Part shown: in pieces, positions 2,899 to 56,130 of the stretch
Numbering within the stretch: the stretch's first letter is position 1
Layout of the letters: each line of letters opens with the position of its first letter
Source: Acidobacteriota bacterium
GTDB lineage: Bacteria; Acidobacteriota; JAAYUB01; JAMOQF01
Length of the DNA stretch: 56,535 bases
NCBI GenBank assembly: GCA_027064125.1
Contig: JAMOQF010000055.1
Coordinates: forward strand, 1 to 56,535
Reading direction: 5' to 3'
Translations under genes and position numbers: made by a program
Notes under the pieces: generated by a model
The model's database searches: none
What the model was told of the DNA's origin: nothing
Seen by the model: only the letters and a program-made list of their open reading frames with translations

Positions 2899-2907
2899 GA
2901 CATCCTC

Positions 2908-5619
2908 CTATTGGGAAATTTCCATTAGAAGTATTTGCAAATCTAATAAATTTAATTTCCCATCTCCATTTATATCTCCCACATCTTTAAGATAGTTGTT
3001 TAAATATAGATTTTCCACCAGGAGATTTTTAAGGAGCAGGACATCCTCTATGTTTTTATTTCCATCTCCATTTAGATCTCCAGTAAAGTTTTCAAGGGAA
3101 CATGTTGGGGTTATTTCTTCAATGCTTATATCGTCTATGTACCATCCACTTCCGCCATTTGATTGATCTGAAGAAGCTCTGAACCTGATATATATTGTAT
3201 TTCCACTGAAAGAAGATAGATTTATAATACTTTCCTTTAATTGGGTGGAAAGTGATCCTCCACTAAAGGCCATTCTGCCTCCAATGGGAGAACCATATTT
3301 ATCAGAAATTTTCATATTGTATCCATTTTGAGTGAAGTAATTGCCCAGGTCCTGAAAGTTGTTTCCTCCATCTGTTGATATTTCCACAACTCCTCCATCG
3401 TATCCAATTTCAAAGGAATAGGTATGGAAAAAGTGAAGGTAATACAATTTTTCATTTGAGAGATCTATGGGGCCTAAGGTTAAATAACTATCCTGAATCT
3501 GAGGTGCATCTATTGTAAAATAACTGTGGTTTTGGGAGTGAGAGTAGGGGGTTTCCTTCAATTGCCATTCATAATTCGTTGTTCCAGCCCCTATTGATAT
3601 CTGCCAGAGAGAACTTCCACCAGATTCAAGATCATCTTCAAATATGTTATTGGAAGATATTTCTCCAATTTGTAGTTCTTCTTGAAAGTTAAATTCAAGT
3701 CCATCATTGTAAACTTTTATAAGGAATTTTGCCTTTTCTCCACACTGAAAATCACTACCTATTTTAAATATTATGGAATTTTCACAATGTATAATTGCCC
3801 CGGTGTGAGGTAAATTGTTAATTGAAAGGAGATTATTTAAAATTTTTATTGAAGGGTCTTCTGGAATAATTTTTATAAAGATTTTTCCAGTATCTACTGT
3901 TCCTGAGTTGTAGAAACTTAAATCCATTTTGTAAATTTCACCCGGATCTGCCTTTTCATCTCCATTGCCATCCAATTCCGAAAAGTCTACATTGTATAGG
4001 TTTACGAAGGGACCGTGGCTTCTACAATCTCCTTCTGAAAGTATGCCCCTGTTGTAGAAAATATTACATATTAATCCGGTATGATTTCCATTGTATAAAT
4101 TTTCATCTGCTTCAATTATTGAGAGGGCTCCATTTCTAAAATTTGTGGATGGAGGCATATGGTATTGTCCCTCAAGTACAATGGAATCCGTTATTTCCTT
4201 GCCCAGTTTCATAAATATTTCTCTAAGGCAGGATGACCATATCTCCCCATCGTCATGGATTTCACCATCCATGTCATCCGGGTACTTTTTATTTGAATCC
4301 ACCCTTCTCAGACATGGTGGAATTGAATTTGAATAGGAGGTGGAATCCCACTCTCCAATACAAAATGGATCAAAACCATTTGCAACACTTATGTTATAGG
4401 TGTTTGAGAAGGCCCAGTAATCACCGAAGCCTTCTCCTATGGCTCCCGATTCTCCTGTGGTGACAAACGCGTTTTTATTTTGAAAGTATTGAATTGAGTG
4501 CCCCATTTCATGAAGAATTATGTCTGCATCCTCTGCGTCGTCAACTCCGCCATCTCCATAAGCTATATAAGGGCTGCTTCCAGCAGAAAAATGGGATTGA
4601 TCCGCTCCATTTACTCCGTGGGGATCCACAGAAAGGGGATAGGGATATATGTCAAAACCTAAGGATTTTAAATATCTACATGCTTTATCAATCCAGTAAT
4701 ATACCATGACTGCTTCAAATCCATCATCTTCTCTGTAGTAGTTGAAGGAACCATCCTGTGATTTTGGTGGTGCAATATATGGATATTCAATGTCTTTAAC
4801 TTTTACATTTGGTCCATTTAAAATAAATAGGTCATTTTCATCCTTAGATATATCTTTTAGTAAAACTTCTTGATATGCTCTTTCTGAAATGGCGTTATTA
4901 CTATCTCCCATATCCCTCAAGTTTATATTTCTGAGTGAATTTACTGGATTTGGATTGAATATTCTTCCATTTCCATCGAAATAATAGATATTTGAGGTTT
5001 CAAAAAGTATTTTCCCATCAAGGAGGGAAATAATATATTTTACATCTAATGGAGAATTTTTCTTTTTTAATTCCACATAAGTTGAAGGTATTAAATTGTT
5101 ATCCTTTCCTATGTAAAAAACTTTATAGAGGTTTTTGAGGGAAAATTTTCTGCCATATTTTTTTTCAAAACTTTTTTCCGCTATTTCCAGGGAATCAGAT
5201 TCATTTAATTTTTGTGGATGGGAGATTTTGGTGTTGAATACCTTTTCGAAAATTGAGTAGAGTTCTTTTTTATCGTTAATGTGGAGATCTATATAAGAAT
5301 TAAAAACTTGAATTCCCTTAAAATTTGCCTTAAATCTCAAATGAATTCCACTTAAACTTGTCCATTCCTCTTCAAGGTTGAAGTTTTTGTAAATTTTTTC
5401 TATTTTCAATGGGTATTTTAAATTTTCAAGAATTAGTCCCGGATTTAAAAGTTCATTATTTTGCAGTTTGTAATCTTTCAATTTAAGGAAGCATGGAAAA
5501 TTTTTCTCATAAGAAATTTTAATTTCTTTTCCTTCAAAATTTATAAACTTATAGTTTGAAGAAAATAAAAAGGTAATTGAGAGTAAAGTAGTAAATAGGA
5601 AAAAGATTTTTTTGAACAT
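2908..5619 (-). CDS. Secreted zinc metalloprotease (thermolysin clan, M36/fungalysin-like) with a C-terminal MAM/lectin-like domain and a dockerin-type module
   Basis: Signal peptide MFKKIFFLFTTLLSITFLFSS. HEMGH plus the downstream GEGFGDYWA (gluzincin third ligand). The C-terminus is GDLNGDGNKNIEDVLLLKNLL...GDINGDGKLNLLDLQILL, a duplicated calcium-loop dockerin signature. Confidence 0.75.
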   Translation of the reverse strand: MFKKIFFLFTTLLSITFLFSSNYKFINFEGKEIKISYEKNFPCFLKLKDYKLQNNELLNPGLILENLKYPLKIEKIYKNFNLEEEWTSLSGIHLRFKANFKGIQVFNSYIDLHINDKKELYSIFEKVFNTKISHPQKLNESDSLEIAEKSFEKKYGRKFSLKNLYKVFYIGKDNNLIPSTYVELKKKNSPLDVKYIISLLDGKILFETSNIYYFDGNGRIFNPNPVNSLRNINLRDMGDSNNAISERAYQEVLLKDISKDENDLFILNGPNVKVKDIEYPYIAPPKSQDGSFNYYREDDGFEAVMVYYWIDKACRYLKSLGFDIYPYPLSVDPHGVNGADQSHFSAGSSPYIAYGDGGVDDAEDADIILHEMGHSIQYFQNKNAFVTTGESGAIGEGFGDYWAFSNTYNISVANGFDPFCIGEWDSTSYSNSIPPCLRRVDSNKKYPDDMDGEIHDDGEIWSSCLREIFMKLGKEITDSIVLEGQYHMPPSTNFRNGALSIIEADENLYNGNHTGLICNIFYNRGILSEGDCRSHGPFVNLYNVDFSELDGNGDEKADPGEIYKMDLSFYNSGTVDTGKIFIKIIPEDPSIKILNNLLSINNLPHTGAIIHCENSIIFKIGSDFQCGEKAKFLIKVYNDGLEFNFQEELQIGEISSNNIFEDDLESGGSSLWQISIGAGTTNYEWQLKETPYSHSQNHSYFTIDAPQIQDSYLTLGPIDLSNEKLYYLHFFHTYSFEIGYDGGVVEISTDGGNNFQDLGNYFTQNGYNMKISDKYGSPIGGRMAFSGGSLSTQLKESIINLSSFSGNTIYIRFRASSDQSNGGSGWYIDDISIEEITPTCSLENFTGDLNGDGNKNIEDVLLLKNLLVENLYLNNYLKDVGDINGDGKLNLLDLQILLMEISQ

Positions 5620-6899: not shown

Positions 6900-7835
6900 A
6901 GGGAAACACACCATAAACTTAGTGTTTGAGGGATTGTAGGAAAAGATATTTTCATTTATTAACTACATGATTAAATTTCAGGCAGTGTAAAATTAATTGT
7001 GTCAAAAAGGAGAAATCTCTTTTCGGGAAAAAGGGATTAAAATTAACCTTGATTGAAAATTCCCTAAAAGGACTATACCTATGAGTGACTTAATTTTTAC
7101 CTGGGTTTCAGAACTTTTCAAAAGGTATCAGGCAAGTAATAGGTAATACAGGTAAGTAAGTAAAAAAAGAAAGATGGAAGGGGACAGACCTAAATCTTGA
7201 AAATGTGTCAGGCAAAAATTTAGATGGCTTTTGAGGGGGAGGCAAATAAAAAAAGGATAAAATTCTGGCAAAAAGAAAATCCTTCTGGCAGAAATCAAAT
7301 GATTAAAATTTTTTTCTTTCTATAAGCCTTTAGGGGTATTTAGGGTGGGCAGATAGGAAGAAATTAAATTCTTGCAAAGATGAAATCCTTTGGCAAAAAA
7401 CAACAATTAAAGCAAATGCCCTTTTTCATCCTATAAACCTTTGGGGGTATTAGGGGTAGGCAAATAAGGAAAAAACTTAAAACTGGCAATACCTAAAAAT
7501 TTTCTGGCAAAAATTAACAATTAAAATAAAATCCCTTTTCTCTTCTATAAGCCTTTTATGGGCCTTATGGGCCTTTTGGATCGGGTAAGTAAGAGGAAAA
7601 ACTAAATTCTGGCAAAGATAAAATCTTTTAGCAAAAGTCAGCGATTAAATAAAATTCTTTTTTACCCTATAAATCTTTAAAGGATATGGAAAAAGGGACA
7701 GACCTGAATTTAAAATTGGACAAGTAAGAAAAAGGAATGAAGGGGAATTGTTCTCATACAAAATTGAAAGACTTCTTTTCTTTTATTTTAACAAATCTTA
7801 TTTACTAAATAGAAAATTTCTTTAATCTTTACTTA
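6900..7835 (+). repeat. Intergenic mosaic repeat locus R2: left boundary module, word motifs, four tandem units, right boundary module
   Basis: The left module 6903-7123 is homologous to 39507-39590 and, inverted, to 33640-33800. GGTATCAGGCAA is at 7124, GGGGACAGACCTAAA at 7180 and GTGTCAGGCAA at 7205. Units span 7216-7668. GGGACAGACCTGAA is at 7695. The right module ~7775-7835 is homologous to ~40220-40262. Confidence 0.85.
7216..7668 (+). repeat. Tandem array of four degenerate ~104-122 bp units
   Basis: Unit heads CTATAA(G/A)CC lie at 7320, 7431, 7545 and 7667 (periods 111, 114, 122). Each unit carries G-rich TTTAGGGG..TAGGG..GGCA followed by two (T)CTGGCA boxes, spaced about 25 and 20 bp, and ends in CCCTTTT. 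Confidence 0.85.
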
Positions 7836-18585: not shown

Positions 18586-18659
18586 TGTTGTTTTTATTTG
18601 ATCACATTTTTTGTCATTTTAAAGAATTTTAAATTGTGGATTTGAAAGTAGAAAAATAT

Positions 18660-20975
18660 TGGGGGGCTAAAAGGTGTCAGGCAAGATCTGGATAAAAATG
18701 ATAAAAAGAAAAGGTGTTAAGCTAAGATAATCGAATTCCTCCCATAATCCCCACCAATTGATTTGTAGGAAAGAAAGAAAAAGATTGAAAGTTCAGGAAA
18801 TTCAGGAAAATTCAAGATTTAGGGAAAGAAAAAATGGTGTCAGGCAAGTAGTAAAAAAAGAAGGTGGGTAGGGACAGACCTGAACTTGGGAAAAAATTTT
18901 AAAAAGTATCAGGCAGAAATACCCCCCACAATCCCTACCGTGGGTTTATAGAGAGGAAAGAGAAAGGTTTTTTCTTTTTTGTATGGCACTATTTGTTTTC
19001 AGAAATTTTTAGAAGCTTTTGAGGGAGGTAAATGAGAAAACAGATTAAATATTGGCAGAGTTAATAATTTTTTGGCAAAAGCAATGATTAAAGTAAGTCC
19101 CTTTTTCATCCTATAAACCCTTAAGGGGGTGTTAGGGGTAGGCAAATTAAAAATAAATTAAAGAAATGGATGGGGACAGACCTGAATTTGAGGAATTTGA
19201 GAAATGAATTTAAGAATTAGAATTAAAGGTGTCAGGCAAAATTTTAGATAAAAAGTGTCAGTCAGAAATTTAAATGGCATTTAGGGTAGGCAAACATAGG
19301 AAAAACTCAAAACCGGCAGTCACTTAAAATTTTCTGGCAGAAATCAAGCAATTAAGGCAAACCATTTTTTTCTTTCTATAAGCCTTTAGGGGGCATTTAG
19401 GGTGGGTAAGTAAAAAAAAGAAAATGGAAGAGGGGACAGACCTAAAAATGAGAAATGTCATGTAAAATTAAAAGGTGTCAGGCTAATAGGTAATAGGTAG
19501 AAAGTTTAAAATCTTCTGGCAGAGACTGACAATTAAGATTAACCCTTTTTATCCTATAAACCTTCAGGAGGTATTCAGGAGATGGCAAATAGGATAACAA
19601 ATTAAAATCTTAGAAAGATAAAGTCTTCTGGCAAAGATCAAACAACTAAGCAAAATCTCTTATCCTCCTATCAGCCTTTAGTGGGCATTTGTGGTGGTAA
19701 ACAAAAGAAAAACTTAAAACTGGCGATGACTCTAAATTTTTTAGTAAAAGTCAAGGATTTAAAAAATCCTTTTTTCCTTCTACAAACTTTTAGGAGGACT
19801 TTAAGAATGGAAGAGCGGAAGAGGAAACAGACCTGAGTTTAAGAATAAATTTAAAAAAAATATCAGGCAAATAAGTAGGACAAGTAAGACAGGTAAGTAA
19901 GTAAAAAAAAGAGAAGATGGGTAAAGGTGGGTAGGGACAGACCTGAAGACCTGAAGATAAGATTAAAAAAGGTGTCAGGCAAAGTTTGGAAAATTTGGAA
20001 TTTGGGAAATGGTGTCAGGCTAAAAGGCTGAAAAGCGTCTGACCCCCTCACAATCCCCACCATGGGTTTATAGAAAAGACAAGAAGAATTAAAGATTTAG
20101 AATTTTGTTCCAGTCAAAAAATCTAAGAATTTAAAAAGAATTTAAGTGGACTTTAAGGAAGACAAATAAAAAAAATCAAATTTTGGCAAAAAGAAATTTC
20201 TTTAGCAAAAGGCAACAATTAAGTTCATCCCTTTACTTTCCTATAAACCTTCAGGGGGCTTTCAAAGTGGACAAGCAAAAAGCAAATTAAATTCAGCTAA
20301 ATAAAATTTTTTAGCAGAAATAAAATGATTAAAATTTTTTGAAAAAACCAGGTGATTAAAGAATAATTCTTTTTGTCTTCTATAAATTTTTTTGGATAGG
20401 CTAAAAAGGTGTCAGGCAAATAAGTGAAAAATAAGTAAATAAATAAGGAAATAAGTAAGGTAAGTAAGTAAAGAGAAAGTGTCAGGCAAAAAATTTAGGC
20501 GGCATTTGGAGAGGCAAGAAAAAATACCTAAAACTGGCAATAACTTAAAATCTTCTGGCAGAAATCAAACAATTAAAGTAAAACCATTTTCTTCTCTATC
20601 AGCCTTTAAGGGGCTTTTGGGGTTGGCATGCAAAAAATAAACTAAAAACTGGCAATAACTTAAAATCTTCTGGCAGGGACAAACAATTAAAGAAAAATCC
20701 CTTTTCTTCTCTACAAACCTTCAGGGGGTATTTAGGGGAGGCAAGTAGGAAAAGAAATTGAATTCTGACAGGAGTGATAAAGTCTTCTGGCAAAAGTCAG
20801 GCAACGAGGAAAGCGCAGAAAAGTTTTTGTATCTCTTTTTAAAAGACAAAAATTTAAAGGCTTTCCTCAATGAGTTTAAGATTTTCTTCTTCTACCCTGA
20901 AAGGAGATGTTTCAAGAGCCTTACACAATTAAGTTGACATTATCAAACCTTGCACAATTAACTTTACATTACCCT
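18660..20975 (+). repeat. Intergenic mosaic repeat locus R3: the largest array, ~2.3 kb and gene-free
   Basis: At least 11 GTGTCAGGC(A/T) words (18673, 18836, 18906, 19238, 19255, 19474, 19860, 19971, 20011, 20408, 20480). Five GGGACAGACCTGA words (18871, 19172, 19432, 19823, 19934). About 12 full or truncated units, with heads at 19111, 19376, 19554, 19668, 19780, 20241, 20380, 20596 and 20711. Inverted unit heads at 18739, 18922 and 20043. Confidence 0.85.
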
Positions 20976-21093
20976 TTTTTCCTTTATTGGAATATTTTGT
21001 CAATTATATGAAAAGTATGAAAATATACATTTAGGTTAAAAATGGTTGTGTATATAGAATCTCAAAAAGTTTTTAATGGGAATTTAAGGAGTA

Positions 21094-33039: not shown

Positions 33040-33800
33040 TATAGGAACAAAAACTTCTTAAGCATTTTCTTCGTTTGGGAAAAACCTCCATTTGTATGTA
33101 ATCTTTTGATTCCTTAAAACACCTTTTTCCACCCTAAACCTCATTCACTAATCCCATCCAGACTGTTTTTAGAAAGGGAAAAGTTTTACTTTAACTCTTC
33201 GTTTTTTAATTTTTCTTTTTTGCTTAGTACTAAATTTTTAGTTTTTCTCATTCTTTCCTATAAACCCATAGTGGGGATTGTGGGGAAGTGTTTTTAGTCT
33301 GACACCTTTTATTTTTATCCAGATCTTGCCTGACACTAATTTTAATCAAATTCAGGTCTGGCCCCACTTCTTTTTTTCTTACCTGCCCAACACAACATAT
33401 TTGCCTGACACCTTTTGACCTAACATAACATTTTTAGCCTGGCACCTTTCGGCACCTTTCTTAGTATCATTTTCAAGTCTTTTTCAGGTCTTCAGGTTTT
33501 TCCCAATTCCCCCACCAATTTTTCCATCTTTTGTGCTGGGATTCTTAACTCAATTTCTCTAAATGTGGTTCTGTAAGTTCTTTTGTAATAACCCTTTATT
33601 CCAGTTTAATATCTCATAAGGTATTTTTCCTTTTTTTCTAATAAAATTTTTTCAATCAAATCCTTGAAAAGTTTCAAAATACCACGTAAAAATTAAACAT
33701 GCTCATTGTGTTTCACACCGTTTTGGGAAGTTAATTTTAGCCTCCTTCTTTATGATGTAAAAATTTCTTCCTCCTGACACAATTAGTCGTTAAATTATTT
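33040..33800 (-). repeat. Intergenic mosaic repeat locus R4: the same family in inverted orientation
   Basis: The reverse complement carries TTGCCTGACAC (33326, 33401), TTCAGGTCTGGCCCC (33351) and CCTATAAACCCATAGTGGGGATTGTGGGG (33257-33285). Positions 33311-33336 are the exact reverse complement of 18674-18699. Positions 33640-33800 are the inverted counterpart of the R2 left boundary module. Confidence 0.85.
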
Positions 33801-33882: not shown

Positions 33883-36747
33883 ATGCGTTTAAAAACCGTT
33901 ATCTTTTTAGTTTTGTTATTGTTTTTTCCCCTTCTTACTTTAAATAAGGTTATGGGTAGAAATTTGGAAAATTTAGATGATAAAAAAAAAGAGTTGATGA
34001 AGGTAGTTGATGTAACTAAATATTATAAAAACTTTAATTGTATTTCGAAAGAAACTTTTCCTTTTAACCCTTCAACTTGGATAAAAAGATATGGAGGGGA
34101 TTTTGCTGATGAAGCTTATTCTGTTGCTTCTACCACAGATGGAGGATACATTCTTGCTGGGTACACCAATTCATTTGGATTACTTTTTGAGGATGTTCTT
34201 GTTGTAAAAATTACTTCTTCTGGAAAGGTTTTGTGGGCCAAAATGTATGGTGGCAATCTCGTTGACAAGGCAATTTCAATAATTAGAACTTCTAATGATG
34301 AGTTTTTAATTGTTGGATTTACAAGTTCTTTTGGAAATATAAATGGTGATGGCCTTGTGTTTAAAATAAATTCAAATGGAGATGTAATCTGGTCGAGAGT
34401 ATATGGGGGAAATCACATGGATGTCTTTTATTCTGCAGTGGAAAGTAAAGATGGTTATGAAATATTGGGCTATACATATTCCTTTGGTAATGGAAAAGAA
34501 GATATGTGGTTGGTTAAACTAAGTTTTAGTGGATCTCTTTTATGGTCAAAGATATATGGTGGTGTTAAGAGTGATTTGGGCTTAGGTTTGAAAAAGGATT
34601 TTGATGGAGGTCTTTTATTAACTGGTAGAACTGACTCATATGGAAATGATGGAGATATAATTTTGATTAAAGTGGATCAGAAAGGGAGTGTTAAATGGGA
34701 TAAAGTATATAGAGGAGAATGTTTTAATATCATTTATTCTATAGAAAAGACTTCGGATGGTGGATATGTATTAGGGGGAAGTTCAAAGTCTTCCGGTGAT
34801 AATGGATGGGATTTTTTAGTTGTAAAACTTGATTCCAAAGGGTGTGTAGAATGGTCTAAAACTTTTGGGAGCTATAATGATGAAGTTTCTTTTTCTCTTG
34901 TAAGGACAGTGTCTGGATTTTTTTTGGTTGGATATGAATTGGATTCTAATTTTGATTTTTATAGAGGATTATTGTTACGGATTGATAAAAATGGGGATTT
35001 GAATTGGTCTAAAATTTTTGATCAGGGAAGTAGTTATATACCTTATTTTGTAACTAATTCCTCTGAAGGAGGATTTTTAATTGCTGGTGGTTTGGAATCA
35101 GATTATTATGGTAAATATGATTTTTCTCTGTTAAAACTTGGTTCAAATCTTGACATAGAAGGATGTTCTTTTTTTAAAGATTATCATATTTTAGAAAATA
35201 ATATTAATTTAACAGTAACTTCTCCTGATATTATTGAGTATTCACCTTCTACTTCTTCAAGTGAGGTCTTGCTCAATTCCTTAGTGGCTCCAATTAAGGT
35301 TTATAACGTGTGTCCCATTATTCCGTGGGCAAAAATTTATTCTAATGTAAGTAGTAATATTTGCACAAGTATTGTTAAAAGTTCTGATAATAATTATGTA
35401 ATTTTAGGAAATACAAGTTCTCTTGGCAATAGTGATAATGATATTTTAATTTTCAAACTTGATTCATATGGAAATATTATTTGGGCAAAAAATTATGATG
35501 GTGGTGGAGATGATTTTGGAAGTGAAATAGTGGAATCTTGTTATGGTTGTTATATCATTGTTGGAAAGACAAATTCCTTTGGTTCTGGAAATTATGATGT
35601 ACTTGTTATGAAGATTGACGAACTTGGTTCTATTGTTTGGTGTGATGTATTGGGGGCATATTATAATGATTACGGGGGTTCGTTAATTCAAATATCATGT
35701 GATGAACTGGATATAATTGGGTATACCAATTCTTATGGAATTGGTTCATATGATACTTTTGTTGCTAAACTTGATTATAATGGTAATGTAATTTGGTCTA
35801 AGGCTTATGGGAAGAGTAATAAAGATGATAAAGGTCATTTTATATTGAAAACATCAGATGGTGATTTTTTAATAGGTGGAGTTACTGTCTCCACTGGAGA
35901 TTCAAATGGCATAGATTCATTTCTTGTGAAACTTGATGCAAACGGAAATCTTTTATGGTCCAAGACCTATGGAGATGATAGGGATTTGGTTTTTAAATCT
36001 GCGGTAGAAACGGAAGATGGAGGATTTTTAATATTTGGTGAGAGCGTACTTCATGGAATATGGAGAGATTTACTTGTGGTTAGACTCAATTCAACTGGAG
36101 AATTAAAATGGGCAGAGACATTTGAGTGTAAAGGTACTATCCATTTAAATTCGGTTGTTAAAACCTATGATGGGAAATATATGCTTGTTGGAAAATCAAA
36201 TATTTTAAACAATGAGGATGTTTTTGTTATGGAACTTGATTGTGATGGTAATATAATTTTTTCAAAAATCTTTGGTTCGGATGGAAACGAGGAGGCTTTT
36301 TCTGTTGAGGAAATTTGTAAAGATTGGTCTTTTATAATTGGGAAAGCAGATTCTTTTGGAAATGGAAGAAGTGATATATTGCTCTTAAAATTACCTTATT
36401 TGGGAGATTTTAACTATTGCCCCTATTTAAGAGATTTTTATCCTTCCCCAGTTAAAATGGATTTGGTTGAAAAATCTGAAGATATTACAGTAACTCCCTT
36501 TATGTTTCATGAGGATGAGAATTGTTATTTTATGGATAGAAATGTTTCCTTAGAACAAACTAAAATATGTCCTCTTTTAGGAGATCTGGATGGGAATGGG
36601 ATTGTAAATATAAATGATGTTTTATTACTTAAAGAATATCTTGTGGGGAATTTTCTGGATATAGAAAGGGGCATGGCTGATATGGATGAAAGTGGAAGGA
36701 TAGATAATGTTGATTTGATGTTGCTTTTATTTAAGTTAAGCAGATAG
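33883..36747 (+). CDS. Secreted tandem-repeat protein (about 14 beta-propeller-type blades in two blocks) with a C-terminal dockerin-type module
   Basis: Signal peptide. Fourteen ~50-60 aa repeats of the form W.K.YGG...D.A.S...T.DGGY.L.G.T.SFG.G..D.L..KL...G.... The C-terminus is CPLLGDLDGNGIVNINDVLLLKEYL...DMDESGRIDNVDLMLLL. Confidence 0.7.
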   Translation: MRLKTVIFLVLLLFFPLLTLNKVMGRNLENLDDKKKELMKVVDVTKYYKNFNCISKETFPFNPSTWIKRYGGDFADEAYSVASTTDGGYILAGYTNSFGLLFEDVLVVKITSSGKVLWAKMYGGNLVDKAISIIRTSNDEFLIVGFTSSFGNINGDGLVFKINSNGDVIWSRVYGGNHMDVFYSAVESKDGYEILGYTYSFGNGKEDMWLVKLSFSGSLLWSKIYGGVKSDLGLGLKKDFDGGLLLTGRTDSYGNDGDIILIKVDQKGSVKWDKVYRGECFNIIYSIEKTSDGGYVLGGSSKSSGDNGWDFLVVKLDSKGCVEWSKTFGSYNDEVSFSLVRTVSGFFLVGYELDSNFDFYRGLLLRIDKNGDLNWSKIFDQGSSYIPYFVTNSSEGGFLIAGGLESDYYGKYDFSLLKLGSNLDIEGCSFFKDYHILENNINLTVTSPDIIEYSPSTSSSEVLLNSLVAPIKVYNVCPIIPWAKIYSNVSSNICTSIVKSSDNNYVILGNTSSLGNSDNDILIFKLDSYGNIIWAKNYDGGGDDFGSEIVESCYGCYIIVGKTNSFGSGNYDVLVMKIDELGSIVWCDVLGAYYNDYGGSLIQISCDELDIIGYTNSYGIGSYDTFVAKLDYNGNVIWSKAYGKSNKDDKGHFILKTSDGDFLIGGVTVSTGDSNGIDSFLVKLDANGNLLWSKTYGDDRDLVFKSAVETEDGGFLIFGESVLHGIWRDLLVVRLNSTGELKWAETFECKGTIHLNSVVKTYDGKYMLVGKSNILNNEDVFVMELDCDGNIIFSKIFGSDGNEEAFSVEEICKDWSFIIGKADSFGNGRSDILLLKLPYLGDFNYCPYLRDFYPSPVKMDLVEKSEDITVTPFMFHEDENCYFMDRNVSLEQTKICPLLGDLDGNGIVNINDVLLLKEYLVGNFLDIERGMADMDESGRIDNVDLMLLLFKLSR

Positions 36748-36840
36748 ATTTGGTGTCAGGCACGAAAAAATAAAAATTTTTAAAACTTTAATGACCATTC
36801 TGGTATCTAATTAAAAAAGGAATTAATTTAAAAGGGGGAT

Positions 36841-36905: not shown

Positions 36906-37496
36906 TTATCCTATTTCATATCTTACAAAACGTTTAACCTGGATATTTTCTCCCAATTTTAAAATCATATCAGAAATATACTCATTTACCTTTTTAGAAT
37001 CGTCTTTAATATATTCCTGTTCAAGCAAACAATTTTCCTCAAAGAATTTATTTAACTTACCTTCAACTATTTTGTCAATAATATTTTCAGGTTTTTTTGA
37101 ATCTTTTAACTGATCTCTGTAAATATTTTTTTCTTTTTCAATGACTTCCGTTGGAACTGAATCTCTGTCAATCCATTTGGGATTAGCAGAAGCAATTTGC
37201 ATTGCAAGATTTCTTACAAATGTCTGAAACTCTTCATTTTTAGCAACAAAGTCTGTTTCACATCCAACTTCAATCATTACTCCTATCTTTTTATTTGAAT
37301 GGATATAGGCCTCTATAACCCCTTCTTTAGTTGTTCTGCCAGATTTTTTCTCGGCTGCAGCCAATCCCTTTTTCCTGAGATATTCTATGGCCTTTTCCAT
37401 ATCTCCATTTGTTGCCTGTAGTGCTTCTTTGCAGGCCATCATTCCTACGCCAGTTTTTTCGCGTAGTTCTTTAACCATTTGTGCTGTTATAGCCAT
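36906..37496 (-). CDS. tsf: Elongation factor Ts (short form)
   Basis: [26 protein letters not shown] is the canonical UBA-like N-terminus. 196 aa. Confidence 0.95.
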
Positions 37497-37511
37497 TTTT
37501 TTCCTCCAATT

Positions 37512-38315
37512 TTATTCTTCTTCTTTAATTGTTTCTGTAACTTCTTCACTATTTTTTTCTTCTTCGATTTTTTCTTCCTTTTCCTCTTCTTCTACTTTAT
37601 CCTTTTCCTCTACCATTTGATCCTGCATTCTTAAGTTTGTTCCTTCTATTATAGCATCTGCCAGTTTTGAGGTAATAAGTCTTACAGATCTGAGAGCATC
37701 ATCATTTCCAGGTATGACATAGTCAATTAGATCTGGATCACAGTTAGTATCCACAAGTGCAACTATTGGGGTGTTTGTTTTATTCCCCTCTTTAACGGCA
37801 ATTTCTTCGTTACTTGGGTCTATAACTATCAAAACATCGGGTAAATCTTCCATTCCTATTATTCCGCCAAGATTTCTTTCAAGTTTTCTTCTCCTTCTTT
37901 CAAGCCTCGATACCTCTTTTTTGGGAAGTTCGTCGAAGGTTCCATTTTCCTTCATTTCATTTAACATTTGAAGTTTTTTAATGGAATTTTTTACAGTTTT
38001 CCAGTTTGTCAAGAGTCCGCCCGGCCAGCGATTTATTATATAAAATTGTCCACATCTTTCTGCTTCTTCTTTTACCGCATCTTGAGCCTGTCTCTTTGTT
38101 CCAACGAATAGGAATTTTTTCCCTTCACGGGCGGCCTGAATAACAAAATCTGTTGTTTCTTTAAACAACTGCATTGTTTTTTGTAAGTCTATAATGTGGA
38201 TTCCATTTCTTGCCCCAAATATATATGGTTTCATTTTGGGGTTCCATCTTCTTGTCTGGTGACCAAAATGAACACCAGCTTCAAGTAGTGCTTTCATAGA
38301 TATTGTAACCAACAA
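37512..38315 (-). CDS. rpsB: 30S ribosomal protein S2 with an acidic C-terminal tail
   Basis: [26 protein letters not shown] is canonical. The C-terminal ~35 residues are Glu/Lys-rich. Confidence 0.95.
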
Positions 38316-38355
38316 TGCCTCCTAATAAAAAATTTTTTAAAAAACATATAAAATA

Positions 38356-38751
38356 TTATCTCTTTGAGAACTGAGGTCTCCTTCTTGCACCTTTGAGACC
38401 ATATTTTTTTCTCTCTTTCATCCTTGAATCTCTACGTAAGTATCCAGCCTGTTTTAACTTCTGCCTCAGTTCAATATTAAAATGAACAAGAGCCTGAGCG
38501 ATACCATGCCTTATTGCTCCTGCCTGTGCCATTAAACCACCGCCTTTTACTTTTATCAGGATATTAAATTTATCTGCATATCCTGTAAGTAATAATGGCT
38601 GCATCACAAGGGTCTTCTGAGAAACTGTTTTAAAATATTCATTGATATCCTTTTTGTTGATAACGATTTTCCCATTTCCAGGCCTTAAATAAACTCTTGC
38701 AACGGCGGTTTTTCTTCTTCCAGTTGCATAGTATTCTATTTGTTCACTCAA
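38356..38751 (-). CDS. rpsI: 30S ribosomal protein S9
   Basis: YATGRRKTAVARV...GGG..GQAGA.RHGI(A)RAL...RRDSR..ERKK.G...ARR..QFSKR. Confidence 0.95.
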   Translation of the reverse strand: MSEQIEYYATGRRKTAVARVYLRPGNGKIVINKKDINEYFKTVSQKTLVMQPLLLTGYADKFNILIKVKGGGLMAQAGAIRHGIAQALVHFNIELRQKLKQAGYLRRDSRMKERKKYGLKGARRRPQFSKR

Positions 38752-38768
38752 TTTTCATCTCCTTAAAA

Positions 38769-39197
38769 TTAAAATTTTAATTCTATAGGTTTTTGTGCAG
38801 CATGTTTATGCTGCTCTCCTTTATAAACTCTAAGTTTTTTTAACATTTTCCTTCCAAGTTTGTTCTTTGGAAGCATTCCCTTGACAGCGTTTGTTATTAT
38901 TCTTTCGGGATATTTTTCCATCATCTTTCTTGCAGTGGTTTCTTTAAGCCCTCCAAGGTATCCAGTGTGTCTTCTGTACACTTTTTGATCGAGTTTTTTG
39001 CCTGTAAGTTCTACCTTTTCAGCATTAATTACAATGACATAATCTCCACAATCCATGAATGGAACATAATAGGACTTATGTTTTCCCATAAGTATTTTTG
39101 AAATTTTAGTGGCAAGCCTTCCAAGGACTTTGCCCTTAGCATCAACCACATACCATTTCTTTTCTATATCATCTGCTCCTGGAATAAAAGTTTTCAT
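38769..39197 (-). CDS. rplM: 50S ribosomal protein L13
   Basis: [28 protein letters not shown] and [12 protein letters not shown] motifs. Confidence 0.95.
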
Positions 39198-39437
39198 CTT
39201 TCCTCTCCAAAAAATTATTTCTAAATTGTTTGAGCTGGATTAAATAGCTTTACGCTAAAATTAACTCTTTATTATATAGAAAGATCATCCAGCCTGCCAA
39301 CAATCCAAACGGGGATATGATAAATACCATATTTGATTTCTTTTGTAAACATTTTTTTTTATTTTTTTATTTTTTTGTGTGTGGGTTGTTCAACATATAT
39401 ATTAAAATAGAACTGAATGTAAGATTTGGTAGAGTTT

Positions 39438-39509
39438 ATGTATGAAAACATAATAAATAAAATTGGTGATGATGAGCAATATGAAATAGTGTCTTTTCTT
39501 GGAAAATGA
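39438..39509 (+). pseudogene. N-terminal remnant of a Ser/Thr kinase paralogue
   Basis: MYENIINKIGDDEQYEIVSFLGK* aligns with the N-terminus of the intact kinase, MRTFIQELEKSGQYKILKLIGKGG. The frame breaks inside the glycine loop exactly where the repeat boundary module begins. Confidence 0.65.
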
Positions 39510-40262
39510 TACATACCATAAATTTTCTGTCTTGGGGATTATAAGAGAAGAAATTTTCATTTATCAACTCCATAATCAAATTTTATAGCAAATATCTGGT
39601 TTAATTCATATCTTTTATTTTAGATTTAATTAAAGGATTAATTCCCTATGTTTTATGTATTATGTAGTTTAAAGAATGCTACTTGAAAAGGCAGATTAAA
39701 TATAGACAAATAAAAAATAAATTAAATTTAGGCAAAAATAAAAAAGCTTTTTACAAAAGGCATTGAATTTAAGTATTCCCCCTTTCCCTTTTATAAACTT
39801 TAAGGGAGAATTTAGGGATGAGAATAAATTTTAAAAAAGTGTCAGGCAAGAAATTTAAGGGGCATTTATGGGGGGCAAGGAAAAGAAAAACTTAAAACTG
39901 GCAAGACCTAAAATTTTTTTGGCGAAAATTAATGAATAAAAGAAAATCTCTTTTTCCTTCTATAAACATTCTGGATGGCATCTGGGTAGCAGGTAAGAGA
40001 AGAATTTAGTATTAGGCGAGAAATCTGGTGCATGAAATTAGAATTGGTGTCAGGCAAGAATTGGATAAAAAGAAAAGTGTCAGGCAGAAAATTTAAGAAA
40101 ATTTAATAATGAAAATTTAAAAAGGCAAATAAGAAAAGAAGCAAAAAAGAGTGGTGAAAATTTAATTCTTTAAGTCGGGACCAGTGATTAAGTAAACTTT
40201 TCTCATATAAGCATATTTTTTCAAATTATCTTAATAAATCTTATTTACCAAACGAAAAGTTT
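39507..40262 (+). repeat. Intergenic mosaic repeat locus R6, lying between the two kinase-paralogue remnants
   Basis: The left module 39507-39590 is ~75% identical by eye to 6903-6985. GTGTCAGGCAA(G) words lie at 39840, 40046 and 40077. A unit spans 39851-39960. The right module ~40220-40262 is homologous to ~7790-7835. Confidence 0.8.
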
Positions 40263-40264
40263 TT

Positions 40265-40552
40265 TTAACTATCCTTTTAATTTTTATTTTATGCTATTAT
40301 ATAGAGAAAGGGAATTTAAATAGATCAGATAAATATTTAAGAAAAGCAAGAGAGATATTTGGTGAATATGATAGAGATATACCTGAGAAAATTTTTTTAA
40401 TGGGAATGGTGGATGTCTATTACTCAAAAGCAAATAGGGGTAAAATGAGTTATATTACAGAACTCTTGGCGAAAAATAAATTTTATAGTATAAAATTTAA
40501 AAAGTTATTTAATCTTTTTAAGAATCATAGATTGTCTCGGGAGTTGCCATGA
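40265..40552 (+). pseudogene. C-terminal remnant of a Ser/Thr kinase/TPR paralogue
   Basis: Open frame without a start: ...CYYIEKGNLNRSDKYLRKAREIFGEY...ELLAKNKFYSIKFKKLFNLFKNHRLSRELP*. It aligns with the last ~85 aa of the intact kinase (AYYLKNGNFKKSGELMEISKRMVSKY...KLINSRKYYRANFLNLFNMFKNYKLSLFPAR*). Its TGA overlaps the kinase ATG (ATGA). Confidence 0.7.
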
Positions 40553-43500
40553 GAACTTTTATTCAGGAACTTGAAAAAAGTGGTCAATATAAGATTTTAA
40601 AGTTGATAGGAAAGGGGGGAACTGCGGAAGTTTACCTTGCTGAAGACAGGATTTTGAATAGAAAAGTTGCCATTAAGTTTATTCTGAGTTTTGATGAAGA
40701 GAGTAAAGAGCAATTTCTAAAAGAAGCGAGGATTCAGGCTCAGATAGAACATGACAATATCTGTAAAATATTTGAAGTGGGAGAAGTGCTTGAAATCCCA
40801 TATATTGTTATGGAGTATATTGATGGCAAACCCCTTGATTATTTTTCAAATAAAATATCTCTTGAAAAGAAGGTCTCTTTAATATTGAAAGTGTGTGATG
40901 TTTTAATAGAAGCGCATAGAAATGGTGTCATCCACAGAGATATAAAGCCTTCCAATATTCTTGTTGAAGAAAAGGAAAGTGGAGAGTTAAAACCCTATTT
41001 AATGGATTTTGGGATAGCAAGGAAACAAAATGCCCCTGGGAAAACCACCACAGGAACTGTAGTAGGTAGTCCAAATTATATGTCTCCTGAGCAGGCCATG
41101 GGGAAAGTTCATGAACTTGACAGAAGAAGTGATATTTATTCTCTTGGGGCTACATTTTACCATTTAATATGTGGGAAGACACCTTTTGACGCTCAGTCGA
41201 TTATTACGGCAATATATTGTGCAATAAATAAAGAACCTACATCACCGAGAAAAATTTCACCTGCTATTCCAAAGGATATAGAAGCTATCGTGCTTAAATG
41301 CCTTGAAAAAAATCCGGATAGAAGATATCAATCTGCAAGGGAACTTGCGGATGATTTGAAAAGATTTCTAAATGGGGAGCCGGTTCTTGCACAAAATCCC
41401 ACTTTTGCCTATAGGTTTTATAAAAGGGTTAGAAAAAATAAGAAGTTTTATCTTCTTTTGTCCCTTCTCATTATATCCATTTTATCTGCTCTTTTTATCT
41501 ATTTTTATAACAGGATATTACAGGAAAAAAGGGCCAGATTGATACTTGAATTTGATAGAAAGGCAAATGAAATAGAGAATTTGCTGGAAATTGCTTATCT
41601 TTTGCCTCCGCACAGTATAGCAAAGAGGAAAAATGAGGTATTGAAAAAAATAAAGGCTCTTGAAGAAAAAATTATGGAATTAAATGAGAAGGAAAAGGCT
41701 ATAGGTTTTTTTGCAATGGGAAAGGCGTATTTCTATCTTGGAGAATATAATAAAAGTCTAAGATATTTAAATAGAGCCTGGAAAAACTTTAAGACAGGTT
41801 ATGTCGCACATTTTATTGCCCTTGTAAATTCAAGTATTTACCTTGAAAAATATCAGGATTATTCCCTTTTAAGTGATAAAAAAGAAAGGGAAGCAAAATT
41901 GAAGGAGATAAATTTAAAATATAGAGATCCTGCCTTAAAGTTTTTTAAGTTGAGTGATATTGATTGGCCTGAGGGAGCAAGTTTTAAAAAAGGTATATTT
42001 TGTCTCCTTGAAAAAAAATATAATGAGGCAATATTAAATTTCGAGAAAGTTATAAGGGAAAATCCTGCATATTATAGGGCTTTGGTGCTTGAAGGGGAGT
42101 GTTATTTAAATCTTTATGTAAATTCTAAAGGGGAAAAAAAGGATTACTACTTTAAAAGGGCGATAGAGTCAATTAAAAGGGCTATTTTAATAGGTAGAAG
42201 TGATCCTTCCCTCTATGTGAAGTTGGCAAGGTATTATGAAAAAAAGATGATTACTTTGATTTACAATTCCAATAGGGATCTCATGCCGATTTTCAAAAAG
42301 ATAGAGTCAAATTTAAAAATTGCCATAAAAATTGATAATAGAAATAAGAGGGCCTATGAAGAAATGACTTCTGCCTATTGGAGAATTTCAGAGTATCTTG
42401 CTTTTAAAGGGGATAAAGGTGCGAGAAGAGTGGTTGAAAAGGGACTTAAAATAACCGAGTATGCTGCTAAACTTTTTCCCAACTCTTTTGATATATTTAG
42501 TTCCAGAATAAGTTTTTACATCTTAACTATTAATTATTTTCGTCCTGAAAAGAAAAAAATGGAAAAACTTATAGATGAAGCCATAGATTTCTTGAAAAAA
42601 AGTGAGAAATTGTTTCCTTCTACAAAGAGCATTTTATATAAAAAGGGAGAGTTATATAGTGCAATTGGCTATTACAAGTTTGATAATGGTTCTAATCCTG
42701 AAATTTTTTTAAAAGAATCAATTAAAGTTTACACTGAGATAATTGATAATTTTAAAGAAGATATTGAAATAGCAATTTTTAACAGGGCAGTTGATGAATA
42801 TTATTTTGCGAAGTCTTATTACCATTTTGACGGCAAGGATCCTTGTGAATATTTGAAAAAGTCTATAAGGGACTATAAAAAGGTTTTAGAGATGGATCCT
42901 GGAGATTATTTAACCATGATAAATTTGAGTGAACTCTACTATTTTAGATTTTCGTTTAATTTGTTAAATGGTAGCAATTTGAAAAGGGATTTGAAAAGGA
43001 TAGAATATTACTACAACTGTGCCAGAAAAATAAATGAGAATTATAGGTTTACATATCTTCTTAAGTTGGAGTTTTTGATAGCAAAAATGGAATATTTAAA
43101 TTTAATGGGTTCCTTTAATAAAAGAAAGGTTGATGAAACTATTAACTTCTTGGAATTTATCAAAAATAAATTTTCCATTGATGAGGCGACCTATTTTTCA
43201 TATCTTTCTTTAATTTACAGAGCAAATTTAAATCCCGATTTGAATTTCATAAAATCGTATGAAAAAAATCTTTTAATTCCATATTTAAAAAGAGATGAGA
43301 GGGACATATATTTGAATATGGATGGTTTCTTTACCCCCTATTTTATTTTTCTTGGGAAAAGTGATTTTTCAAATTATTCCATTGTCACCAAAATGTTAGA
43401 TGTATTTAAGAGAGTAAAGAAATTTGAAGGAGAGAAATACACTTCTGATAGAGAACTTTTAAAAATATTGCTTTTTTGCTCTGCGTACTATTTAAAAAAT

Positions 43501-43740
43501 GGAAATTTCAAAAAGAGTGGGGAATTAATGGAAATTTCAAAGAGAATGGTTTCAAAATATGGTGAAAATCTTTTGGAGGAGAAGTTTTTTAAATCGTTTG
43601 TTAATTTATATTTTGGTGACCGAAATTCCTTTAAGTTTATTGAAAAATTAATTAATTCAAGGAAATACTATAGGGCAAATTTTTTAAATTTGTTTAATAT
43701 GTTTAAAAATTATAAACTTTCTTTATTTCCAGCAAGGTAA
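40549..43740 (+). CDS. Hanks-type Ser/Thr protein kinase with one TM segment and a ~730-aa TPR-like helical-repeat domain
   Basis: GKGGTAEVY, VAIK, HRDIKPSNILV, DFGIA and SPEQ. TM segment FYLLLSLLIISILSALFIYFY. The C-terminal part is helical-repeat rich. Confidence 0.9.
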   Translation: MRTFIQELEKSGQYKILKLIGKGGTAEVYLAEDRILNRKVAIKFILSFDEESKEQFLKEARIQAQIEHDNICKIFEVGEVLEIPYIVMEYIDGKPLDYFSNKISLEKKVSLILKVCDVLIEAHRNGVIHRDIKPSNILVEEKESGELKPYLMDFGIARKQNAPGKTTTGTVVGSPNYMSPEQAMGKVHELDRRSDIYSLGATFYHLICGKTPFDAQSIITAIYCAINKEPTSPRKISPAIPKDIEAIVLKCLEKNPDRRYQSARELADDLKRFLNGEPVLAQNPTFAYRFYKRVRKNKKFYLLLSLLIISILSALFIYFYNRILQEKRARLILEFDRKANEIENLLEIAYLLPPHSIAKRKNEVLKKIKALEEKIMELNEKEKAIGFFAMGKAYFYLGEYNKSLRYLNRAWKNFKTGYVAHFIALVNSSIYLEKYQDYSLLSDKKEREAKLKEINLKYRDPALKFFKLSDIDWPEGASFKKGIFCLLEKKYNEAILNFEKVIRENPAYYRALVLEGECYLNLYVNSKGEKKDYYFKRAIESIKRAILIGRSDPSLYVKLARYYEKKMITLIYNSNRDLMPIFKKIESNLKIAIKIDNRNKRAYEEMTSAYWRISEYLAFKGDKGARRVVEKGLKITEYAAKLFPNSFDIFSSRISFYILTINYFRPEKKKMEKLIDEAIDFLKKSEKLFPSTKSILYKKGELYSAIGYYKFDNGSNPEIFLKESIKVYTEIIDNFKEDIEIAIFNRAVDEYYFAKSYYHFDGKDPCEYLKKSIRDYKKVLEMDPGDYLTMINLSELYYFRFSFNLLNGSNLKRDLKRIEYYYNCARKINENYRFTYLLKLEFLIAKMEYLNLMGSFNKRKVDETINFLEFIKNKFSIDEATYFSYLSLIYRANLNPDLNFIKSYEKNLLIPYLKRDERDIYLNMDGFFTPYFIFLGKSDFSNYSIVTKMLDVFKRVKKFEGEKYTSDRELLKILLFCSAYYLKNGNFKKSGELMEISKRMVSKYGENLLEEKFFKSFVNLYFGDRNSFKFIEKLINSRKYYRANFLNLFNMFKNYKLSLFPAR

Positions 43741-45334
43741 TTTACAAATATTACTACATCTGCTTCATTTACAATTCCATTATAATCTAAATCTCCACAC
43801 TCAAGAGAGGAATTAAATGGAGGTGTTCCGGGGGAAATATTTCCATCCAGATAATTTAAAAGTATTGTGAGATCGAGAACTGAAATTTTTTCATCTCCTG
43901 AAAGATCCCCCATTAAACTGCAATTATTTATCACATATTCATAACATCCAATGTCAATTCCACTTCCCTGGGGTCTATGGTTATTGTCAAGGTCTACACT
44001 TATTGAAACTGAATTATTTCCAGCATCTATACATGGACTGTTCTGGGTTAGTTTATATTCTGAATCCAGAAGGGGATTTTGAATGAGTGTGTTTTCTTCC
44101 CCATTTACATGATTTTGCCATTCTGTAAAATTCATATTTTCTGCTTCATAATCAGGTCTTTGATCTGTAAATTGAGGGTTATTGCCATTTAAATAATAAC
44201 AATTGTTGTCCATTTCAGGCATTCCTGCATCATAACCATTAACTCTTCCAATACTTTCATGGTAAAAGGTCCTTATAAAAACTATATTTGAAGTGATATT
44301 GCTATCTTGAAGCACTATGTTATTGTATACTTTTGAGTTTTTATTGGGTGGCCTGTAAGTGTATTCGTCATTGGGATCGCTGTCTTCTTCCCAATCCTAT
44401 AGACTCACTCCAAAGTATATGGCACTGTGATTAGTTTGAGCGGTGTTAATTAGAGTATTGTTATAAGCGCTACAGTTAAGAGATGCGTAAAAGCCGATTC
44501 CCTCATTCTGGGTATCCACTATGAGGCAATTTTTTACCACCCCTCTTATATTTTCATATCTGTGGGGATTTACTGTTAGGTCAAAGTATTCTGGACTTGT
44601 ATCAAATCCTATTCCCACACCCATTTCTCCACAGTGTTCTATAATATTTCTTTCAATTACACAGTCTGTTGCACCTCCTTTTGCATATACACCAGTTGAA
44701 CCAATATTGTGAATATGACAATCAACAACATGCATGTTATCACCATTTACATTGTCAATTCCTTCTGCATTTTCAGAATACCTTGCACCAGAATTGTATA
44801 TTTCACAATTTTCAATGGTTACATAATCACAATTGGGAGTTATTTTAATACAATCTCTTCCCGTATCATGAACTTTACAATTTGAGATGGTTATATGGGA
44901 TACACCTGTTCTATCTTCTTCTCCCCAATCCCATCTTGTAAAAAGCATTATCCCATAGTAATATCCTCCGGTGATTTCCAGATTTTCTAATTTTCCCCAG
45001 TCGGCATCCACGTCAAATGTAACTGTAGTGTCAATGTTTTCATCATTGATTGGAGCACTAATCTTTATGCTTTCTCCACTGTATGCCTTAATTGTTATGT
45101 GCGGGTTTCTTATTCTAATGGCTTCATTGTATGTTCCTTCTCTTACTATAAGGGTATCTCCACTTGAACTTTCATCAAGGGCCTTTTAAATAGTTCTGTA
45201 GGGATTTGATAGACTGCCATCTCCACTATTGTCATTTCCGGTTGTTGAAATATATATTGTGGCTGAAAAGGAGAATATGGAGAAAAATGTTAAAAAAATG
45301 TCAATATTATTTTTTTAAAAAAATGACTATTCAT
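43710..45334 (-). pseudogene. Disrupted gene for a secreted right-handed beta-helix (pectate-lyase-fold) protein with a C-terminal dockerin-type module
   Basis: One reading frame is broken three times. (1) After MNSHFFKKIILTFF, a frameshift in an A7/T7 run (45292-45298). (2) An in-frame TAA at 45186-45188 in ...GSLSNPYRTI*KALDESSSGDTLIVREGTY. (3) An in-frame TAG at 44397-44399. The C-terminus is GDLSGDEKISVLDLTILLNYL...GDLDYNGIVNEADVVIFVNYL. Confidence 0.75.
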
Positions 45335-56054: not shown

Positions 56055-56130
56055 ATTAAATGTGCCGGGCAATTTATTTTATTTTTAGATAAGATCAGGT
56101 GTATTAAAATGGGTGTCTGGCAAGCAGATA
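56055..56130 (+). repeat. Degenerate copies of the GTGTCAGGCA word starting another repeat locus (R7) at the window end
   Basis: GTGCCGGGCAA (~56063) and GGTGTCTGGCAAG (~56111) lie just downstream of the hemH stop. The remaining ~400 bp to the window end are ORF-free and G+T-rich. Confidence 0.45.

Follow-up and report, generated by a model that had tools for sequence, protein, structure and literature searches.

Replacement of the interior of a serine/threonine kinase gene by a non-coding mosaic repeat array in an Acidobacteriota genome

Contig JAMOQF010000055.1 of an Acidobacteriota bacterium (GenBank assembly GCA_027064125.1), analysed over its whole length of 56,535 nucleotides (hereafter, the window), carries an intact gene for a Ser/Thr protein kinase (kinase B) and, immediately upstream of it, an array of non-coding repeats that lies between the two ends of a second, destroyed kinase gene (kinase A). 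The 1,351 bp that separate the ribosomal protein gene rplM (38769-39197, minus strand) from the start of kinase B contain no open reading frame (ORF) of 60 or more amino acids. The locus is organized as follows (L001 and L018 are two assemblies with an intact kinase A, described below).

39198-39437, no strand assigned: rplM-kinase A intergenic and promoter region, kept unchanged and collinear with the intact allele (92-100% identity per 100 bp to L001 and L018)
39438-39509, plus strand: N-terminal stub of kinase A, comprising codons 1-22 and two bases of codon 23 (39438-39505), then a TGA supplied by the insert
39506-40273, plus strand: repeat array replacing the interior of kinase A, 768 bp, non-coding, no ORF of 60 or more amino acids, no Rfam match
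40274-40552, plus strand: C-terminal remnant of kinase A, codons 982-1073 and the stop codon, a TGA that overlaps the ATG of kinase B
40549-43740, plus strand: kinase B, intact, 1,063 amino acids, Ser/Thr kinase with TPR repeats (Pfam Pkinase, E=8e-46)

Among the homologues of kinase B, the one that matches both fragments is a protein of 1,073 amino acids from a related assembly (P0004), here denoted kinase A, which shares 42% identity with kinase B. The stub is identical to residues 1-23 of P0004 at 21 of 23 positions (91%), with 4 nucleotide differences in 68 from the L001 gene, and the C-terminal remnant has 88% amino-acid identity to residues 982-1073; the two fragments are thus collinear with the two ends of one intact, orthologously placed gene. 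The first-pass annotation, made from the window alone, had compared both fragments with kinase B. For the C-terminal fragment (40262-40549) that comparison stands, as it is collinear with the end of kinase B (26 of 88 positions identical, E=5e-13), but the similarity of the 23-residue stub to kinase B residues 2-22 is weak (6 of 21 identical, E=0.07) and not significant by itself. Alignment with P0004 confirms that both fragments derive from a single gene, kinase A, which precedes kinase B in a translationally coupled tandem pair. The annotation was accordingly correct in placing the array between the N- and C-terminal remnants of a destroyed kinase, in noting the overlap of the remnant stop codon with the kinase B start codon (ATGA, 40549-40552) and in locating the break of the N-terminal frame within the glycine loop.

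An intact tandem pair in related genomes, which had been suggested as a check, is present in L001 (GCA_054001555.1), with the gene order rpsB-rpsI-rplM (minus strand), kinase A encoding P0004 (plus strand), the ATGA overlap and kinase B (plus strand), and in the syntenic locus of L018 (GCA_053992795.1). At other loci, an alignment of 13.9 kb gives 98.9% identity between these two assemblies and the window, which hence belong to the same species. DNA alignment with them defines the junctions to the base, between 39505 and 39506 and between 40273 and 40274, instead of at ~39507 and ~40262 as first read. Window positions 39506-40273 (768 bp) stand in place of L001 positions 2131-5005 (2,875 bp) and are flanked by window 37377-39505, corresponding to L001 1-2130 (95.4% identity), and window 40274-43422, corresponding to L001 5006-8154 (98.4%). 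The left break lies inside codon 23, the Lys codon of the glycine loop (FLGK/GGSG), where the insert provides the third base followed by TGA (39507-39509), and the right break falls on the codon boundary that precedes codon 982. The lost part of the gene, which begins at the third base of codon 23 and ends with codon 981, amounts to about 958 codons (2,875 bp); the earlier estimate of ~940 codons exchanged for an array of ~750 bp had recognized the replacement and underestimated both sizes. No homology or microhomology between the insert and the gene was detected at either junction. Because an intact syntenic pair is found in two conspecifics and the window carries a clean insertion-plus-deletion allele, the comparison of alleles shows the array allele to be the derived state, in which array DNA arrived inside a coding gene. 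An insertion followed by, or coupled to, a deletion had been proposed from the window alone: the alignment bears out such an allele and with it the replacement itself, whereas the manner in which the array arrived has to be inferred.

The array allele also occurs in assemblies GCA_053940225.1 (L002) and GCA_054051215.1 (L072), with 1 and 2 mismatches over the 768 bp, respectively. The same junctions are seen in three NCBI assemblies and in a contig of the Joint Genome Institute (JGI), and two Logan contigs from other sequencing runs (L073 and L074) span the left junction before stopping at 39848 and 39864, inside a repeated motif; a further Logan contig starts at 40324. The array allele is found in at least four further assemblies and is not an assembly artefact. 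Among the strains sampled, those ~99.8% identical to the window carry the array, and the two with ~98-99% identity at other loci (L001 and L018) carry the intact gene. Outside the species, the P0003 locus belongs to a different species and a different genomic context and contains a single kinase without motifs of the repeat family, and a search with P0004 of the genome-contig collection, in which the species is not represented, returned only two unrelated kinases. Among GreA homologues, identity drops from 100% to 64% in one step and to about 40% in the next, which indicates that the lineage is poorly sampled.

The insert itself is composed of distinct segments.

39508-39583, plus strand: left-end module, 76 bp, 79% identical to 6903-6978 (E=5e-13; nhmmer E=3e-21)
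39584-39703, plus strand: first unmatched segment, 120 bp, no match among the compared sequences
39704-40109, plus strand: core of family modules, ~400 bp, with two ~96-nt units and three GTGTCAGGCA motifs
39731-39820 and 39900-39993, plus strand: the ~96-nt units of the core (nhmmer E=3e-15 and 2e-17)
39839, 40047 and 40077, plus strand: the GTGTCAGGCA motifs of the core, from a motif scan
40110-40225, plus strand: second unmatched segment, 116 bp, no match among the compared sequences
40226-40268, plus strand: right-end module, 43 bp, 81% identical to 7783-7825 (E=6e-6; nhmmer E=1e-10)

Modules of the arrays at 7200-7560, 19040-20760 and 33290-33350 match the core at 70-86% identity, with the highest value (86%) at 7471-7550. 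With the array at 6903-7825 the insert is collinear at three points, namely the left end (79%), one unit (86%) and the right end (81%), and this similarity runs to within 2-5 bp of both junctions. Internal self-similarity is nearly lacking, as the two units are diverged from each other and 236 bp are unique.

The repeat family of the insert occupies five non-coding regions, which add up to about 8% of the window. The four other regions are the following.

90-290 (approximate), plus strand: short family array at the left end of the window, highly strain-variable
6903-7825, plus strand: array 2, closest relative of the insert, with which it shares the left-end module, units and right-end module as well as their order, between divergent genes for transaldolase and a C92 peptidase
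18650-20820, plus strand: largest family array, within the 2,508-bp cvpA-greA spacer
33150-33650, minus strand: inverted family array, with inverted-repeat pairs I1-I5 and GTGTCAGGCA on the minus strand at 33327 and 33402

The family is characterized by the GTGTCAGGCA motif, the GGGACAGACCT motif, GGGACAGACCTGAA and the ~96-nt unit. Matches to GTGTCAGGCA with at most one mismatch number 23 in the window, against 0.87 expected. The unit has 22 nhmmer matches, two of them in the insert, with a mean column identity of 64% over 14 copies; 16 of the strong matches share a single strand within their array, and inversion is limited to a few partial copies. Each unit contains a small palindromic core with co-varying arms, TTCTG-G-CAGAA or CTTTT-RGC-AAAAG (units within 7262-7690, 19050-19816, 20180-20752 and 39726-39999), which in several units is followed by ATCAAnnnnTTA, a sequence resembling the binding site of integration host factor (IHF). 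The IHF pattern is not enriched across the window (15 matches against 11 expected), so that its fixed position in some units is a lead only. The end modules had been described as conserved boundaries of the family, a description that does not extend beyond the insert and array 2, as no other array of the window has them, nor do L007, L008, L038 and L059.

Several further features of the modules were observed. Solitary GTGTCAGGCA motifs lie at 36753-36762 and 56113-56122, a few bases past the stop codons of a dockerin-protein gene and of the ferrochelatase gene, respectively, a distribution like that of repetitive extragenic palindromic (REP) sequences. A module beside the left-end module of array 2 (6992-7068) is found also in a contig from another metagenome (L059, 5615-5691), and the two copies form hairpins with compensatory arms (AATCTCTTTT-CGGG-AAAAAGGGATT versus ACCTCCTTTT-GGG-AAAAAGAGGT); on the minus strand the hairpin at 6992-7068 is followed by a T-rich run, which gives it the appearance of a terminator.

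Two explanations of the arrays were tried and rejected. A structured RNA is rejected given that no Rfam match exists in the window at the gathering score (at E<=1, a single chance match to a long non-coding RNA was obtained in 39150-40600), that the search for tRNA and transfer-messenger RNA in the window found nothing, and that the consensus of 14 units shows no conserved fold (4 pairs, -0.83 kcal/mol); on both strands, folding of the complete insert is poorer than that of shuffled sequences (z=+1.8 and +1.0). Clustered regularly interspaced short palindromic repeats (CRISPR) are rejected on the irregular spacing and the 60-86% identity between copies (Tandem Repeats Finder and a repeat finder). 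A scan of metagenome contigs with AAAAACTTAAAACTGGCRA returned 44 loci, 42 of which are chance single matches; the other two, L038 and L059, both from metagenome Ga0256842, carry family arrays at other loci, without end modules, and provide no donor of the insert. Scans of viral contigs with two family patterns yielded two chance matches and none, respectively, and thus no link to phages, and a literature search on the family motifs returned nothing relevant.

Comparison between strains reveals how resident arrays change. The array at ~90-290 measures ~150 bp in the window, is ~265 bp longer in L008 and reaches 1,162 bp in L007, next to a right flank that is 99.7% identical (compared regions: window 1-400, L007 9300-11655, L008 9300-10498). 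On the far side of this array L007 has a CLC-channel gene where the window has the end of an ORF (1-90), which is itself just 89% identical between the window and L008. The kinase locus is therefore not the sole place in the window where the family can be tied to a rearrangement, as had been held at first: the array at ~90-290 too marks a strain-variable junction. The cvpA-greA spacer (18586-21093) is 2,508 bp long in the window and 2,538, 2,686 and 1,875 bp in three other assemblies (comparison loci L064, L065, L066 and L068); the breakpoints of its insertions and deletions coincide with short direct repeats (TTAAAATTTTTT) or with corresponding sites in two units (TATCAGCCTTTAGTGGGC), and a 31-bp tandem duplication accounts for one of the differences. 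Blocks gained or lost in arrays at other loci range from 166 to about 600 bp. These patterns point to unequal recombination or slippage, and not to site-specific insertion, as the likely source of the changes in array length. Point substitution within the arrays is ordinary: in a comparison of the window with L006, identity is 98.5% in array 2, 96.7% in other intergenic DNA and 99.05% in the rest.

A related species (ERZ23495730, scaffold_306), whose transaldolase and kinase B have 93% and 56% amino-acid identity to those of the window, has a spacer of 181 bp where the window has ~1.3 kb with array 2, and no ~96-nt units were found in 34 kb of its sequence. It possesses small intergenic clusters of the perfect 11-bp palindrome GTGCCWGGCAC, the counterpart of the non-palindromic GTGTCAGGCA of the window, together with GGGGACAGACCT, and several scaffold gaps are flanked by such clusters, which are located as follows.

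L019: 1440-1900, 6550-6795, 9780-10005 and 13195-13294
L016: 2875-3065 and 17005-17555

These clusters imply that the short motifs predate the species, and the large arrays look like an expansion in the species of the window. The presence of an array-bearing spacer where the relative has only 181 bp supports the view that the family gains new sites.

Taken together, these data suggest that the DNA now standing in place of the interior of kinase A is probably a 768-bp copy of a non-coding, mosaic interspersed repeat element specific to the lineage. The source of the segment would have been a different family copy in the same genome, and both of its ends would have been joined by non-homologous means. 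Two routes can be envisaged: a non-autonomous element might have been mobilised in trans, with a subsequent or simultaneous adjacent deletion of the insertion sequence (IS) type, which would leave flush ends and no duplication, or a fragment of an array might have been captured as filler in the repair of a break that removed 2.9 kb. Both routes fit the data; transposon hallmarks are missing, and no donor turned up in the ~100-150 kb (~3% of the genome) covered. Once resident, arrays would change further by unequal recombination or slippage between units of ~96-115 nt and by exchange between arrays.

Several observations weigh against the arrival of a mobile repeat copy at the kinase locus. There is no target-site duplication at either junction, although the 2,875-bp deletion would erase one copy of it, and comparison of the left end with the reverse complement of the right end gives no indication of terminal inverted repeats (local score 19, with shuffles averaging 16.0 +/- 2.7, p=0.15; 11/40 positions identical without gaps over the terminal 40 nt); the copy at 6903, taken alone, has a weak internal inverted match (p=0.004). 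No part of the insert has a match better than 86% over 80 bp, whereas a recent donor is expected to be at least ~95% identical, given that the arrays do not hypermutate. No transposase or integrase was detected by Pfam among the ORFs of the 56.5-kb window, which otherwise encode housekeeping functions. The end modules occur only at 39508/40226 and 6903/7783, that is, in 2 of the ~9 arrays examined, and the extension of similarity to both junctions is no proof of element termini, as the spacer of the related species proved too diverged for the true ends of the 6903-7825 copy to be mapped independently. Finally, the flanks are unevenly diverged. The left flank has only 95.4% identity to the intact allele, with patches of 80-94% even within rplM, compared to 98.9-99% at other loci, and of the 20 differences that separate the C-terminal remnant from L001, 17 are concentrated in the first 52 bp of the remnant (40274-40325, 33% divergence), the other 227 bp containing 3. 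This patch is still kinase-derived, its CYYIEKGN resembling AYYLKNGN of kinase B; a recombination mosaic, gene conversion or error-prone repair of the junction are possible causes. The array allele may be older than the split of the strains, or may have been partly imported by homologous recombination, but the uneven divergence shifts the date of the invasion and not the fact of it.

Such import, taken to its full extent, would mean that the replacement took place long ago in a divergent lineage and that the array was later brought in together with its flanks, in which case the polymorphism within the species would be uninformative on recent mobility. This scenario is possible, if doubtful: the diverged left flank, the 17 differences adjoining the right junction and the low identity (~80%) between the insert and its nearest relative all agree with an old allele, but the remainder of the remnant (3 differences in 227 bp) and kinase B (98.9%) are at background level, so that the imported tract must end no more than 52 bp from the junction, and an original invasion would be needed all the same, so that the date would change and the conclusion would not. 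An unlikely course of events is the insertion of two copies in the same orientation, near codons 23 and 981, followed by recombination that deleted 2.9 kb and left a hybrid array. The arrays demonstrably gain and lose blocks through recombination of similar units, the array at ~90-290 differs between strains in content and in the gene on its left flank, as deletion between two arrays would leave it, and flush ends would be obtained without an adjacent-deletion step. Nevertheless, a gene of 3.2 kb would have to be hit twice independently, intermediate alleles carrying one or two insertions are not seen among the at least seven assemblies sampled, and the halves of the insert bear no sign of separate origin, both being closest to array 2. 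In any event, such a double insertion is a sub-mechanism of the replacement by a repeat copy and not an alternative to invasion.

It is very improbable that no 768-bp element moved at all and that a small insertion or deletion scar seeded an array which then expanded in place. Fast expansion and contraction are indeed seen at other loci, as in the 31-bp tandem duplication and the block changes described above, but a locally grown array is hard to reconcile with the near lack of internal self-similarity, the collinearity of both ends and an internal unit with array 2 and the invariance of the insert (1-2 mismatches) across three assemblies. Even less credible is the possibility that the junctions are chimeric products of assembly at a repeat, or that unrelated small ORFs happen to flank an ordinary spacer: short-read contigs do break inside the arrays (39848, 39864, 40324), but identical junctions recur in independent records, including two Logan assemblies at the left junction, and the fragments are 88-91% identical to both ends of one protein of 1,073 residues encoded in syntenic loci. 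As for the machinery, it seems improbable that the arrays are produced by a dedicated DNA-insertion system, for example a recombinase or nuclease acting at GTGTCAGGCA (GTGCCWGGCAC) and TTCTG-G-CAGAA sites, which would found arrays at naive sites and add modules of ~100 nt. If this were true, the allele at kinase A would record the founding of an array of a new class, non-coding and self-propagating, that also delivers outward promoters to adjacent operons, and such machinery, if it exists, would point to a new kind of mobile DNA.

The replacement of the kinase A interior by a repeat copy may also affect the neighbouring genes. The left-end module contains a sigma-70-like sequence, TTGATA-18-TATAAT (11/12 matches; minus strand, 39567 to 39538), which is the best promoter-like match of the region and faces outward, leftward, toward the rplM-rpsI-rpsB-tsf operon; the homologous position in array 2 has TTAATA-18-TACAAT (9/12), facing the adjacent minus-strand transaldolase gene. 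The total of promoter-like sites in the sigma-70 scans is not above that of shuffled sequences, and what stands out is a positional coincidence in two of two copies, which makes this site a predicted promoter only. A further promoter-like site, for rplM, is located at 39300 to 39271 (minus strand). The insert may thus rewire the adjacent ribosomal-protein operon through its promoter-like site. On the other side, kinase B has its own ribosome-binding site (GGGAG), and its 25 synonymous and 8 non-synonymous codon differences from L001 (98.9% identity) suggest that it is under purifying selection. No terminator is predicted in 39150-40650, and hence kinase B is probably still expressed, by read-through from the retained upstream promoter. 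Kinase A, for its part, although it belongs to a coupled pair of giant TPR-repeat kinases, appears to be dispensable.

Interspersed non-coding repeats such as REP sequences, BOX and Correia elements are widespread in bacteria, and the disruption of genes by them is already known; to our knowledge, however, direct before-and-after evidence of the entry of such repeats into new sites is rare, and entry into coding sequence rarer still. The kinase locus provides direct evidence that the family can occupy new DNA, a gene included, and as both alleles exist within one species, with junctions known to the base, the event is open to population metagenomics. At about 8% of a window of housekeeping genes, and differing between strains whose flanks are 99.7% identical, the family contributes strongly to structural variation, and to breaks in assemblies, in this sparsely sampled lineage.

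Some features of the neighbouring genes deserve mention. A beta-helix/dockerin gene on the minus strand (43710-45011) is split by one in-frame stop codon (...YFGVSL*DWEEDSD...) into ORFs of 204 and 201 amino acids; the gene call at this position in L072 is a single product of 433 amino acids, so the stop in the window may be a strain-specific nonsense mutation. A type I dockerin domain forms the C-terminus of several large proteins that look secreted (33883-36747, 2908-5619 and 43710-44315). A dockerin protein of 954 amino acids, encoded between an M48 peptidase gene and tsf, has no counterpart in the related species, where the M48 peptidase-tsf spacer is 120 bp long; the window has the inverted array followed by the dockerin gene there.

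Among known repeat systems, the bacterial interspersed mosaic elements (BIMEs) are clusters of enterobacterial REP sequences, including the RIP/RIB type that bears IHF sites. The family resembles them in being non-coding and, the kinase locus excepted, intergenic, in its mosaic of short motif types, in cluster size and content that vary between strains, in single motif copies just past stop codons (36753, 56113), in the perfect palindrome GTGCCWGGCAC that represents the motif in the related species and in the IHF-like ATCAAnnnnTTA that accompanies a small palindrome in some units. It differs in that its units are ~96-115 nt long and nearly all in one orientation, whereas REPs alternate, in that its arrays reach 2.2-2.7 kb, in that GTGTCAGGCA is not palindromic in the species of the window and in that one element has replaced coding sequence; in place of the hairpin-forming palindromes of 20-40 nt that are typical of REPs, it has only 11-13-nt unit cores and, in the relative, GTGCCWGGCAC. 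No REP-associated tyrosine transposase (RAYT) was found by Pfam among the ORFs of the window (~57 kb of the genome searched). BOX elements of Streptococcus pneumoniae have the structure boxA-(boxB)n-boxC, are ~100-300 bp long and form stable RNA structures. Like them, the family is modular, with distinct end modules around variable internal repeats, non-coding, presumably moved in trans and located near promoters where it could affect neighbouring genes; unlike them, the insert has 768 bp and the arrays up to 2.7 kb, no structure is found, the end modules are confined to 2 of ~9 arrays, and there is neither sequence similarity nor an Rfam match.

Correia elements (NEMIS) and other bacterial miniature inverted-repeat transposable elements (MITEs) are non-autonomous and polymorphic between strains and may land in or near genes. 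The family shares these properties, as well as promoter-like sequences that face outward (11/12 and 9/12), but has an array-like interior, no terminal inverted repeats and no observable target-site duplication, and its copies, in the part of the genome covered, are mosaics of 70-86% identity and not near-identical discrete units. The kinase locus further resembles the products of IS-type adjacent deletion and of filler DNA in break repair, with a flush segment, loss of adjacent sequence, no target duplication and no homology at the junctions, and differs from them in that, as far as the sequence shows, neither a transposase nor an insertion sequence is involved, and that no source of the filler turned up. 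Wherever membership could be tested, the family belongs neither to REP/BIME, BOX or MITE elements nor to CRISPR or Rfam RNA families. Its closest counterparts are the bacterial mosaic interspersed repeats, namely BIME, BOX and Correia elements.

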